64,000 bases of DNA from an uncultured Nannocystaceae bacterium (GCA_964402225.1 CAYOBQ010000012.1:20747-84746); one strand, 5' to 3'; counted from the first letter of the stretch, positions 29,083-49,929 are shown. Numbers and translations: made by a program. Notes: generated by a model from the sequence alone, not told the origin.

Positions 29083-29251
29083 CTAGGACGGTGCGGCAGA
29101 CAAAGCGACCAAGTGATGTGCGTGCCCGCCAACCGAGTTCAAGGCGCGAAGCCGTAGCGATATCCGAAGATATCGGTAGGCTTCGCAACGCCGAAATCGG
29201 TTGGCGGGCGCGTGCAGCGCGCCGCGTCGCGACTCTGCCGCACCGTCCTAG
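29083..29251. mobile_element. Palindromic miniature element (MITE-like), copy 1
   Basis: CTAG on both sides; perfect 14-bp terminal inverted repeat gacggtgcggcaga/tctgccgcaccgtc; self-complementary interior; second copy at 48932-49100. Confidence 0.85.
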
Positions 29252-46896: not shown

Positions 46897-47547
46897 TCAG
46901 CGACGGGCCTCGGCGGCGATGCGTTTCTTGGTCGCGGCCCACCCGCAGATGGGGCAGATCGCGAGGTCGTGGCGCCTCGCCGGGCAATGCTCACGACCGA
47001 AGTAGATGATCTGGAGGTGGAGCCGGTTCCACAGCGTAGGCGCGAAGACCCGCTTGAGGTCACGCTCGGTGGTCTCCACGTTCTTCCCCGAGGACAAGCC
47101 CCAGCGGGCCGCGAGCCGGTGGATGTGGGTGTCGACGGGGAACGCGGGGACGCCGAAGGCCTGGGCCATCACGACCGACGCGGTCTTGTGGCCCACGCCG
47201 GGGAGGGCTTCGAGGGCCTCGAAGCTCTGGGGGACGGCGCCGCCGTGGCGCGTGAGCAACAGCTCGCTGAGGCGCCGGAGGTTCTTCGCCTTGGTGGGGG
47301 CGAGGCCGATCTGGCGGATGAGGTGGGCGATGGCCTCGACCTCGAGGGCCGCCATCTCGGCGGGCGTGCCCGCGGTGGCGAACAGGGCGGGCGTGACCTC
47401 GTTGACCTTCTTGTCGGTGGTCTGCGCGCTGAGCAAGACGGCGACGAGGAGGGTGTAGGGGTCGGTGTGGTCGAGGGGGATCGGCACCTCGGGGTAGAGG
47501 CGCTCGAGGATGTCGACGACGCGGTCGGCCTTCTCTCGGCGAGTCAT
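46897..47547 (-). CDS. nth: Endonuclease III
   Basis: LSAQTTD, LPGVGHKTA, VDTHIHR; C-terminal cysteine cluster (3 Cys plus His). Confidence 0.93.
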   Translation of the reverse strand: MTRREKADRVVDILERLYPEVPIPLDHTDPYTLLVAVLLSAQTTDKKVNEVTPALFATAGTPAEMAALEVEAIAHLIRQIGLAPTKAKNLRRLSELLLTRHGGAVPQSFEALEALPGVGHKTASVVMAQAFGVPAFPVDTHIHRLAARWGLSSGKNVETTERDLKRVFAPTLWNRLHLQIIYFGREHCPARRHDLAICPICGWAATKKRIAAEARR

Positions 47548-49112
47548 TGCAGGCTGAAATCCCAGCGGAGCTTGACGAAGAGGCGGTCGTGCTCGTCCAG
47601 ACCGGTGAGGAAGGAGACCTCCTCGTCGTCGCGCGGTGGTTGGTAGGTGACGTAGCCGATGCCGGCGTGGACACCGTCTGTGACCTCGTAGTTGGCCTCG
47701 GCGCGAGCCACCCAGCCGAGCTGGGCGGTGTAGCCGAAGGCGCTGGCCGCGGCGGCGAGCTGGAGCCGCTGGCGCAGGGCCTCGTGGGTCACGCGCAGCG
47801 CGAGTTGGGGCTCGTCGGTGGGGAAGAGCAGATCGGCGGGGGCGTCGGTGAACAAGCCCTGACTCCACTCAAACGCGAAGGCCGTGTCGGCGACGCCGCG
47901 CCACGTGAGGCCGACCATCGGCGTGAGGAGCGACGCCTCGTCGACCTCGATTATGGGGATGGCCTGGGAGGTGTCGCCTGTGTTGAACGGGCGGTCGAGA
48001 TCAAAGGCGAGCTCCCACTTGAGCAAGAACGTGTCGTAGGTGGCGGCCCCCGAGGTGGCGAACAGGGTGTAGCGCCGATGGTCGAGCACGATGTCGATGT
48101 CGTCGCTGGCCAGCGCCACCGGATCGAGGACCACGACGCCCTGGCGGTCGAGGAGCGAAGCGGCGTAGAGGCCGAGATCGACGGCGGGTCCCTTGTAGAC
48201 CCAGCGCAACAGGACGTTTTGGCGCTCGGAGAAGCGGCCGGGCGTGTCCACGAAACGCAAGGTCTTGCCGGCGAGGAGCGCCGCCGCCGGACCGCCACCG
48301 GCGATGATGGAGCGGAAGGGGCTGAACTCACCGGTGGGCGGGGCGCGCTCGTCGAAGCGCTGCTCGTGGACGACCATCGCCTCGAAGCGGTGGTCGCCGG
48401 GGAACCAGCCGACGCGGGTGGCGAGGATCGGGAGGCGCAGGTCGTCGAGATCGGCGAGGCCGGGCTCGCGCAGATCGCGCGGGTTGACGACGTCGACGGG
48501 GGAGAGCGCGTCGCCTTCGCCCCAGGCGACGATCTGGCGACCCAGCGTGACGTCCACCGGGCCCAGGGCCGCGCCGACGAATTGCTCACCGTCGAGGTAG
48601 CGCGTCTCGTAGGTCTCGGTGGTGGCGTCGTCGTGATCGCCGCCACGGTAGACCAGGTCGTGCTCGACGTGGCCGGCGAGGACCGCCCGCCAACCGTGGG
48701 CGTTGAAGCGCCACGCGAGATCCAGGCTGCGCCGGTCCTTCGCCCAGGGGTCGGCGTCGGTGCGCTCGGCCCAGAAGTGCGTGTCGCTGCGGACGAAGCC
48801 GTCGAGGGACCAGGCGGAGGAGGTCGTCGCCTGCGGCTCGGGGGTCTCGCCGAAGTCGAAGTCATCGGCGGAGTCGCCCCAACCCTCCTCCTCCTGTGCA
48901 GCGACGAGGGCGGGCACGAGGGCGCAGCACACCAGGACACTGCGGCAGACCAAGCGACCAAGCGATGTGCGTGGCCGCCGGCCGAGTTCAAGGCGCGAAG
49001 CCGTAGCGATATCCGACGATATCGGTAGGCTTCGCAACGCTGAAATCGGTTGGCGGGCGCGTGCAGCGCGCCGCGTCGCGACTCTGCCGCAGCGTCCCAG
49101 CACCCGGCGCAC
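47544..49112 (-). CDS. Outer-membrane beta-barrel protein (DUF1302-like), with a 55-aa in-frame palindromic-element insert in its signal peptide
   Basis: LGRQIVAWGEGD...DVVNPRDL motif; C-terminal FVKLRWDF. Confidence 0.82.
   Translation of the reverse strand: MRRVLGRCGRVATRRAARARQPISALRSLPISSDIATASRLELGRRPRTSLGRLVCRSVLVCCALVPALVAAQEEEGWGDSADDFDFGETPEPQATTSSAWSLDGFVRSDTHFWAERTDADPWAKDRRSLDLAWRFNAHGWRAVLAGHVEHDLVYRGGDHDDATTETYETRYLDGEQFVGAALGPVDVTLGRQIVAWGEGDALSPVDVVNPRDLREPGLADLDDLRLPILATRVGWFPGDHRFEAMVVHEQRFDERAPPTGEFSPFRSIIAGGGPAAALLAGKTLRFVDTPGRFSERQNVLLRWVYKGPAVDLGLYAASLLDRQGVVVLDPVALASDDIDIVLDHRRYTLFATSGAATYDTFLLKWELAFDLDRPFNTGDTSQAIPIIEVDEASLLTPMVGLTWRGVADTAFAFEWSQGLFTDAPADLLFPTDEPQLALRVTHEALRQRLQLAAAASAFGYTAQLGWVARAEANYEVTDGVHAGIGYVTYQPPRDDEEVSFLTGLDEHDRLFVKLRWDFSLQ
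48932..49100. mobile_element. Palindromic miniature element (MITE-like), copy 2, intragenic and in frame
   Basis: CCAG direct repeat at both ends; 169 bp; 12 substitutions and no indels versus copy 1 by manual alignment. Confidence 0.88.
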
Positions 49113-49113
49113 G

Positions 49114-49929
49114 CTACAGGCCCTTCTCGAGGGCGCGCTGGCTGAAGTCGCCCTCCGCCACGTCGGCGTTCCCGTGGCTCAGCTTCTGGAACCGGAGCAC
49201 GGTGGTGGACTCGACGGTGTCGCCTCGCTTGGTCCGCGCCTTGAGCGTGTGGGGGACGAGGATTCCGCCCACGTCCTTGATGTCCTCGAAGCGCACCAGC
49301 TTGATCTTCTTGCCGGCCGTGACCCACATCTTCGCCTGCAACGGCATCAGCTTCGACTTGCTGACCCAGACGTGCGTCTTGAGGTAGCCGGTCTCCTTCT
49401 TGACCTTCTTGGTCTTGGGCCGGGACTCGATCAGCCAGCAATCCTCGCCAGCGGCCTGCACCGTCTGCTTCAGCATCTTGTACTCGTAGTGGGTGGGATC
49501 GGCGCGGGTCATGTCGCTGTATGTGAAGTCGGTGCCCATGAAGGAGCCGGACTTGTCCCCGCTGGAGATGCGCGTCGACTTGTGCAGGCTCGGCAGGTAG
49601 AGCCACTGGTCATCGTCCTTGGCACCGTCATCGTAGTCGGTGGACAAGAGGCCCGTGCCCTTCACGTCCGGCGGGCTCTCGAAGATCATGAGTTGGCGGG
49701 TGCCGCCGTCGAAGAGGAGGGCGCGGGTTCGCACCACGCGCTCGCGCTCGCGGCCGGACCGGTCGGTGATGGTGATCACCATCTCGCCCTTCACCTTGTC
49801 GCCGCGCGCGCGGGCCTCCACCGCGGCCATGATCCTGGCGGGATCCGTCTCGTCGGTTGACACCGTCGGCGCGGCGGCGGCCGGCGCGGCCACGAACAAG
49901 CTAAGCAGCAGGCTGATGCGGGTCCGCAT
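49114..49929 (-). CDS. Outer-membrane lipoprotein-sorting (LolA-like) protein
   Basis: Signal peptide; FESPPDVKGTGLL, DDQWLYLPSL, SFMGTDFTYSD. Confidence 0.88.
   Translation of the reverse strand: MRTRISLLLSLFVAAPAAAAPTVSTDETDPARIMAAVEARARGDKVKGEMVITITDRSGRERERVVRTRALLFDGGTRQLMIFESPPDVKGTGLLSTDYDDGAKDDDQWLYLPSLHKSTRISSGDKSGSFMGTDFTYSDMTRADPTHYEYKMLKQTVQAAGEDCWLIESRPKTKKVKKETGYLKTHVWVSKSKLMPLQAKMWVTAGKKIKLVRFEDIKDVGGILVPHTLKARTKRGDTVESTTVLRFQKLSHGNADVAEGDFSQRALEKGL

Follow-up and report, generated by a model that had tools for sequence, protein, structure and literature searches.

A miniature inverted-repeat element lying in frame within the signal peptide of a DUF1302 outer-membrane barrel gene of an uncultured Nannocystaceae bacterium

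A 64,000-nucleotide stretch of DNA from an uncultured Nannocystaceae bacterium (GCA_964402225.1, CAYOBQ010000012.1:20747-84746), referred to below as the window, contains a DUF1302 outer-membrane barrel gene whose signal peptide is interrupted, in frame, by a 163-bp palindromic element. The element is a non-autonomous miniature inverted-repeat transposable element (MITE), being small, with inverted ends, a target duplication and many dispersed copies. Neither MITEs nor their in-frame fusions are new; the novelty lies in where copies of this family survive, namely on rebuilt TAG stop codons and in cleavable signal peptides, always in one phase. The anatomy of the copy, the copy number, the derived state of the insertion and the excess of signal-peptide sites are direct observations. 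Our preferred reading, which we consider probable, is that insertions that strayed off target by chance persist where the peptide they add would merely lengthen a positively charged leader that is later cleaved, and that the insert in the barrel gene is read through. The features of the gene and its insert are:

47544..49112, minus strand: DUF1302 outer-membrane barrel gene of 522 codons, insert included, starting with the GTG at 49110-49112 (Pfam PF06980, E 5.5e-13)
48897..48932, minus strand: remaining original signal peptide VCCALVPALVAA, followed by predicted cleavage before QEEE (sequence and homologues)
48933..48934, no strand assigned: target-site duplication, left CA (TG on the gene strand, giving the Leu codon CTG); the family norm is TA
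48933..49097, minus strand: 55 inserted codons ending ...GRLVCRSVL, net charge +11, in a frame that the consensus of the family also keeps open
48935..49097, no strand assigned: MITE copy, near-perfect hairpin, 163 bp (inverted-repeat pair I1; 64 genome copies of at least 140 nt; fold z -7.6)
48935..48949, no strand assigned: left terminal inverted repeat GGACACTGCGGCAGA, 15 nt (inverted-repeat pair)
48951..48953, minus strand: in-frame TTG within the element, 7 codons short of its end, a possible alternative start giving MVCRSVL plus the hydrophobic region (h-region)
49004..49027, no strand assigned: central hairpin tip, GATATC-loop-GATATC (pair I4; aligned with the elements of genomes G015, G012 and G023)
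49083..49097, no strand assigned: right terminal inverted repeat TCTGCCGCAGCGTCC, 15 nt (inverted-repeat pair)
49098..49099, no strand assigned: target-site duplication, right CA (sequence and flank alignment)

The barrel assignment is above the Pfam threshold (49.2 bits against PF06980, cut-off 23.2). The first-pass annotation of the window had described the insert as a 161-bp core flanked by a CCAG direct repeat; this is the same DNA, but its boundaries were set one base too far in. Because the 15-nt inverted ends (93% complementary) sit at 48935-48949 and 49083-49097, the element measures 163 bp (GGAC...GTCC), with CA/CA at its flanks, and the 165-nt inserted block (48933-49097) consists of this element plus one extra copy of the 2-bp flank (CA, plus strand). 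On the minus strand the junctions read GTG CGC CGG GTG CTG / GGA CGC TGC ... AGT GTC CTG / GTG TGC TGC GCC, the insertion following codon 5 of the gene. A net gain of 165 bp, equal to 55 codons that keep the gene's frame free of stops, had been claimed and is correct: the open reading frame (ORF) 47544-49112 reads through 522 amino acids. The same is true of the Arg-rich segment ahead of the hydrophobic region, which has 13 Arg, one Asp and one Glu, a net charge of +11. The fold energy of the element as single-stranded DNA is -62.7 kcal/mol, compared with -40.1 for shuffled sequences (z -7.6), and that of the RNA with flanks is -110 kcal/mol (z -4.1). Given this fold energy and the genome-wide matches, the palindrome is not due to chance. 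Contigs from four metagenome DNA runs of one marine study extend from either flank into the element for 27-30 nt without a mismatch; none skips the 165 bp, which does not establish the absence of an empty allele because contigs lose rare variants. Only three bases of this copy are rare among other copies of the family.

Excision of the 55 codons restores a signal peptide, as had been proposed. The codons following the insert are GTG TGC TGC GCC CTC GTG CCC GCC CTC GTC GCT GCA CAG GAG, and the leader without the insert is MRRVL-VCCALVPALVAA/QEEE, that is MRRVLVCCALVPALVAA/QEEEGWGDSADDFDFGET. As read from the sequence, it comprises an MRR n-region, the hydrophobic core VLVCCALVPALV and a small-x-small cleavage site, VAA/Q, an architecture that the homologues share at the corresponding position.

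The insertion is the derived state. Orthologous loci in other genera, at 40-55% identity, have a short N-terminal signal peptide in 14 of 15 cases and the insert in none; the one locus without a readable leader (L045) is cut by its contig end. A typical leader is MRRLLALGVLLATPAAA/QDWGG, and the orthologues match residues 12-460 of the mature part without a stop. Three closer homologues (68-75% identity), from a large protein collection, have signal peptides of 14-17 residues, again without an insert: MRALLVLLPVLASA/QDWGEEGDDFDFGET, MTRWALAALLPLGALA/QDWGEGGDDFDFGET and MKGALLLLVLAPWAAVA/QDEEGWGDGGDE. Since homologues at 40-75% identity are all short-leadered and insert-free, the 55 amino acids were gained. 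The empty site sought in the first-pass annotation is thus present in every homologue with a readable leader, and the alternative that it had allowed for, an ancestral 55-residue segment, fails.

The genome to which the window belongs (G000) is an assembly of 9.4 Mb in 358 contigs at 70.8% GC. The annotation had called the insert a mobile palindromic repeat and suggested that copies and target duplications be counted. BLASTN with the element returned 271 high-scoring segment pairs. Of these, 64 reach 140 nt or more, and among the 64 there are 55 with an identity of at least 85%; recognisable element ends number 317. Inverted ends, the hairpin and the 64 near-full copies bear out the mobile character. 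In an alignment of 50 copies with 25-nt flanks, 25 have the form cTA[GGACGGTGCGGCAGAC...GTCTGCCGCACCGTCC]TAg. TA/TA flanks occur in 27 of the 50 and matching pairs other than TA in three (TC/TC, TG/TG and the CA/CA described here, which is confined to the barrel-gene copy). A 2-bp (TA) and a 4-bp (CTAG) target duplication are inseparable, the net gain being 165 bp in either case. The inverted arms of the consensus are 16 nt long and family copies are 89-98% identical to each other. Six-frame translation revealed nothing beyond the 55-codon read-through and no transposase gene. Two of the six consensus frames are open; we estimate that at this GC content about one in three such 55-codon stretches would be open by chance. 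An Rfam scan of 48700-49400, with E up to 1, gave no match.

Most copies lie outside genes or exactly on stop codons. Flanks were read with a codon-usage model trained on 1483 long frames; the length of open frames was tried as a guide to intragenic copies and rejected, spurious long frames being common at 71% GC. Of 45 inward-reading coding flanks that were found, 27 end exactly on the junction TAG, which is made of the duplicated TA and the element's first G, and one or both neighbouring genes stop there in 21 of the 43 full-length copies that could be analysed. By eye, copies between co-directional genes had no clear bias of orientation relative to transcription.

In six of the 43 copies (e.g. 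C19:50984-51146, C17:57443-57605 and C5:43803-43965) both convergent neighbours end on junction TAGs. Such pairs must have shared one CTAG as overlapping stops before the insertion, and entry into C/TA/G therefore rebuilt the stop on both sides.

About 8-11 of the 43 copies lie inside genes, at least three of them carrying a stop. As to the fraction of intragenic copies that are in frame, which had been proposed as a test, the outcome is divided: some are open (C41, in a gene for a Reg_prop repeat protein, C128 and C174), but C14, C335 and C163 are broken by the element's own stop, and the C14 copy splits a DUF4143 domain at profile positions 90/87. The suggestion of a 'coding-compatible' repeat family is not demonstrated, since most copies are outside genes or on stops, only two of six frames are open and the codon usage is non-coding. 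The counts support 'tolerated in signal peptides'; 'coding-compatible by design' goes beyond them.

The evidence for signal peptides comes from a survey of the 317 element ends, of which 293 were analysable and 37 abut an outward-reading coding flank. These 37 fall into three phases: 23 are in the phase in which the last element base and the next two nucleotides form a Leu codon, and nine and five are in the other two. A home-made rule was used to recognise signal peptides: a stretch free of charged residues had to lead into a lipobox Cys or a small-x-small site, and a polar tail had to follow. It was satisfied by 11 of the 23 ends in the Leu-codon phase, compared with none of the 14 in other phases (Fisher p 0.0022), and by 3522 of 91579 in-frame CTN/G sites genome-wide (3.8%, a background against which 11 of 23 has P 2.4e-10). 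After curation there are 11 copies in signal peptides, including that of the barrel gene, in one phase throughout. Nine are in the open orientation (the barrel copy, C28, C10, C160, C118, C219, C143, C54 and C225) and two in the orientation with an internal stop (C163, in a PepSY lipoprotein gene, and C115). None of the eleven downstream ORFs is interrupted over lengths of up to 2346 codons, and their domains include GH1, GH44, FGE-sulfatase/Laminin_G_3, NAGPA, Exo_endo_phos, PepSY and DUF1302. Two complete cases share the orientation and frame of the barrel copy. C28, a GH1 enzyme gene, reads VRRRILWTL[55 aa]VALTVAC/GDD, and in its seven homologues (two at 54-69% identity, five at about 33-34%) the lipoprotein signal is short; C10 reads MNGLRWPLMP[55 aa]ALCASAHA/QPVDC, with a MYXO-CTERM-like tail that matches only below the cut-off. 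Cleavable signal peptides thus look like a tolerated landing place for the MITE.

The C225 copy (C225:13302-13371) is an internally deleted form of about 70 bp, with element positions 1-46 joined to 132-163; it stands in frame before PAIALLVGC/GAESP, and the frame of 980 codons to which it belongs has no match in Pfam. The copy at C180:8279-8441 ends four codons before the ATG of a lipoprotein (MRSLLPLLVLLSGC/AVV), in frame and just outside the leader.

The gene upstream of the barrel gene is:

49114..49845, minus strand: LolA_like gene, upstream of the barrel gene, TAG stop at 49114-49116 (Pfam PF17131, E 1.1e-47)

Its TAG stop is 1 nt ahead of the barrel GTG, which is preceded by GAGAAGGG. 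The normal landing site is CTAG, which contains the stop codon TAG and within which TA would be duplicated. Because the element begins with G and ends with C, both junctions rebuild TAG, which explains why most gene-adjacent copies are found, without harm, on stop codons. On the preferred reading, the element would occasionally land on the look-alike CTN/G, a Leu codon plus G inside a gene. In this Leu-codon phase its ends, in either orientation, read L-G-R-C-G-R inward and C-R-T/S-V-L outward, and in one orientation all 55 codons form an open, Arg-rich stretch of net charge +11. Translation of the barrel gene would most likely still begin at the original GTG, coupled to the LolA_like stop, and then pass through the element. 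The added peptide would extend the n-region with its positive charge and set an Arg and three apolar residues ahead of what is left of the hydrophobic core. R-S-V-L would re-form the link with this core, VCCALVPALVAA, and cleavage at VAA/Q would remove the extended leader in full. With the leader cleaved off the mature barrel would be unchanged, and the insertion therefore close to neutral. The excess of leader sites would be a matter of survivorship, off-target insertions elsewhere in proteins being lost.

Translation of the insert and continued export are what we infer from the sequence. The ratio of 9:2 in favour of the open frame among the signal-peptide copies is a hint of read-through, as is the intact barrel ORF across the insert. 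The codon at the downstream junction is CTG rather than CTA in three of four in-frame copies, compared with two of 46 others. Relative to the consensus, the four in-frame copies have 15 synonymous and 12 non-synonymous differences; for the 46 remaining copies, read in that frame too, the numbers are 85 and 183 (p 0.018), in a test that was post hoc, concerns four copies and partly reflects family-wide polymorphism (TCA>TCG in all four).

That limitation weighs against the preferred reading, as do several other points. A look for RNA runs covering this stretch returned none. The signal-peptide rule made one false-positive call (C14, an AAA_14/DUF4143 gene) and one miss (C10), and in six of the 11 signal-peptide cases the upstream half is invisible because the contig ends inside the element. 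An n-region of about 60 residues is far beyond the usual length, and in the mRNA the hairpin would start 15 nt past the start codon. In none of its six frames does the element have the codon usage of coding sequence (-0.39 to -0.86 per codon). Read-through cannot reach C163 and C115 because their orientation has an internal stop, and a transposase with matching ends was absent from searches of the assembly. Lastly, the public gene call for the barrel locus (P0001, 457 aa) starts at an internal GTG downstream of the insert, and lacks a signal peptide for that reason.

A further proposal, possible though doubtful, is that the family has a coding niche. Its ends, which give C-R-T-V-L outward, together with the open Arg-rich 55-residue peptide, could let it settle at the junction of n- and h-regions in Sec and lipoprotein leaders with the mature protein unharmed. 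Signal peptides would then be a general 'safe harbour', and the ends perhaps niche-shaped.

A rival reading is an internal restart, which we regard as improbable. Here translation would begin at the element's TTG (48951-48953) and give MVCRSVL plus VCCALVPALVAA, the 48 upstream codons being irrelevant; in the other orientation an in-frame GTG would serve, and the element would supply a new short n-region. Both orientations do hold an in-frame start that precedes the outgoing end by 7 or 13 codons and has Arg and T/S-V-L after it; this is the sole model that would keep the stop-containing copies C163 and C115 functional; and C28 and C163 show CTG in place of CTA at the downstream junction, the upstream junction codon still being CTA. 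However, the TTG sits in a paired repeat stem with no purine-rich, Shine-Dalgarno-like run ahead of it, the native GTG retains its GAGAAGGG motif and coupling, and the 9:2 bias would be unexpected if the upstream codons were irrelevant.

It is similarly unlikely, in our judgement, that the barrel gene is dead, the leader failing or the hairpin blocking translation, so that the gene would be a young pseudogene as yet without stops. The copies are indeed young (89-98% identical, with only three rare bases in that of the barrel gene), other copies plainly disrupt genes (C14, DUF4143), and the operon partners LolA_like and MMPL, being upstream, would be unaffected. Yet copies that had not been purged should track the availability of targets, 3.8% of which satisfy the rule, and not reach 11 of 23; the orientation bias, the eleven open downstream ORFs and the failure to see an empty allele in the four runs, with the reservation on rare variants given above, also speak against it.

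Very unlikely is that the transposase prefers signal-peptide DNA or that the Arg-rich extension or mRNA hairpin was recruited to regulate export or translation: eleven independent genes are hit at the same leader position, and related elements in other genera of the family, despite different ends, retain the core, but the canonical target is CTAG at stop codons and unrelated to leaders, the codon usage is not coding-like, the host genes specify unrelated enzymes, none of the nine inspected among 20 related copies found in three of five relatives lies in a leader, and survivorship by itself accounts for the pattern.

With regard to parentage, the family consensus end GGACGGTGCG is identical in nine of its first ten bases to both ends of Escherichia coli K-12 IS5A (GGAAGGTGCG). 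IS5 insertion sequences (IS) have the target YTAR and some IS5 subgroups duplicate TA; the target of the MITE is likewise a palindromic tetranucleotide, CTAG. We infer that the mover was a transposase of the IS5-family type. IS630-type elements also duplicate TA and may instead have supplied the parent. The MITE differs from IS5 members in being 163 bp long and without a transposase, and no IS with these ends was found in the assembly. Since the search for a parent covered a 358-contig assembly which breaks at repeats, its results apply within that scope: matching ends paired 0.3-4 kb apart enclosed no transposase, the pairs found being due to chance apart from one passenger cassette, and searches with PF13358 and PF13586 gave zero matches. 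Five genes matching DDE_Tnp_1 (PF01609) were rejected as parents, having unrelated ends; one is an ISAs1-like remnant beside a partial copy. In a collection of genome contigs the exact end pattern had no match, and a 19-nt core motif had eight single matches, seven of them in unrelated taxa and probably due to chance.

The cassette is a 1015-bp unit of the same genome (G000 C3:26029-27043; locus L121:582-1037) bounded by the same inverted ends, with cTA as left flank. It carries a 152-codon gene for a 23S_rRNA_IVP (four-helix-bundle) protein (Pfam E 1e-39) and looks like a passenger moved by these ends.

Related elements were found in seven of 40 other genomes of the same order (the 40 include no member of the same genus), six of the seven in the same family. 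In those inspected, from five genera of the family (loci L056-L065; G023, G015, G019, G006 and G012) the core is 70-80% identical, the ends are different and the central stem co-varies, GATATC/GATATC being matched by AATACT/GTATT. The elements of G015 and G012 are 163 bp + 2, with TA in CTAG, and one copy of G019 is 165 + 2; these lengths argue neither for nor against selection for an in-frame length.

A parallel with Rickettsia palindromic elements (RPEs) had been drawn at the outset. It holds in part, both being palindromic repeats of about 150 bp able to sit in frame in genes and add a stop-free peptide; by description, the basis of the comparison, the MITE is not built like an RPE and most of its copies are outside genes. 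According to the excerpted text of PMC10969869, translational fusions make up nearly half of the RPE copies belonging to three families and affect genes of many kinds, and in-frame fusions by intragenic MITEs are 'not unusual', with RPEs treated as an extreme case; such fusions are common ground with ERIC, BOX and other bacterial MITEs (PMC10969869, same excerpts). The copies described here, in contrast, are mostly intergenic or on stops, the in-frame ones being concentrated in cleavable signal peptides. In the full-text literature searched, including that part of PMC10969869, there was no report of a family recurring in signal peptides or of repeat ends encoding the junction of n- and h-regions. 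Nor was a report of MITEs in myxobacteria found in the full-text literature, a scope that leaves subscription journals and supplementary files outside. The statement that the element was not recognised as described agrees with these searches, which gave no description of it. The MITE is further distinguished from RPEs by its clear inverted ends, its TA/CTAG target, its two open frames of six and its host, which is Myxococcota-like and not Rickettsia.

The extended signal peptide region (ESPR) of autotransporters is an extended signal peptide with a long n-region, and is a conserved, vertically inherited motif. Here too a long N-terminal extension precedes an ordinary core and cleavage site; with the ESPR export continues, whereas for the barrel protein this is predicted only, and the MITE extension consists of transposon sequence whose codon usage is non-coding, its function being putative. 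If the extended leaders still work, signal peptides would be able to absorb 55 extra residues, mobile DNA would have a simple route to persist in essential-looking genes, and the copies would provide a natural set of 'extended leaders' for probing the limits of Sec and Lol recognition. For annotation, the consequence is that gene callers mis-start such genes, as with the public barrel call and its lost signal peptide.

Upstream of the barrel gene the order is LolA_like and then a gene for an MMPL-type transporter (Pfam). A scan of 48600-49500 for promoters and terminators found none. The window holds one more copy of the family:

29086..29248, no strand assigned: second MITE copy, 94% identical, flanks cTA...TAg (C12:49832-49994)

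It is situated upstream of a minus-strand gene whose frame is open through the element, and the downstream peptide is unlike a signal peptide. Elsewhere in the genome copies also occur head to tail, with starts 165 bp apart and a single common TA (C55:41764-42091, C296:5916-6131, C149:23028-23326 and others). This spacing would be expected if new copies land in the CTAG rebuilt at the edge of an older one.

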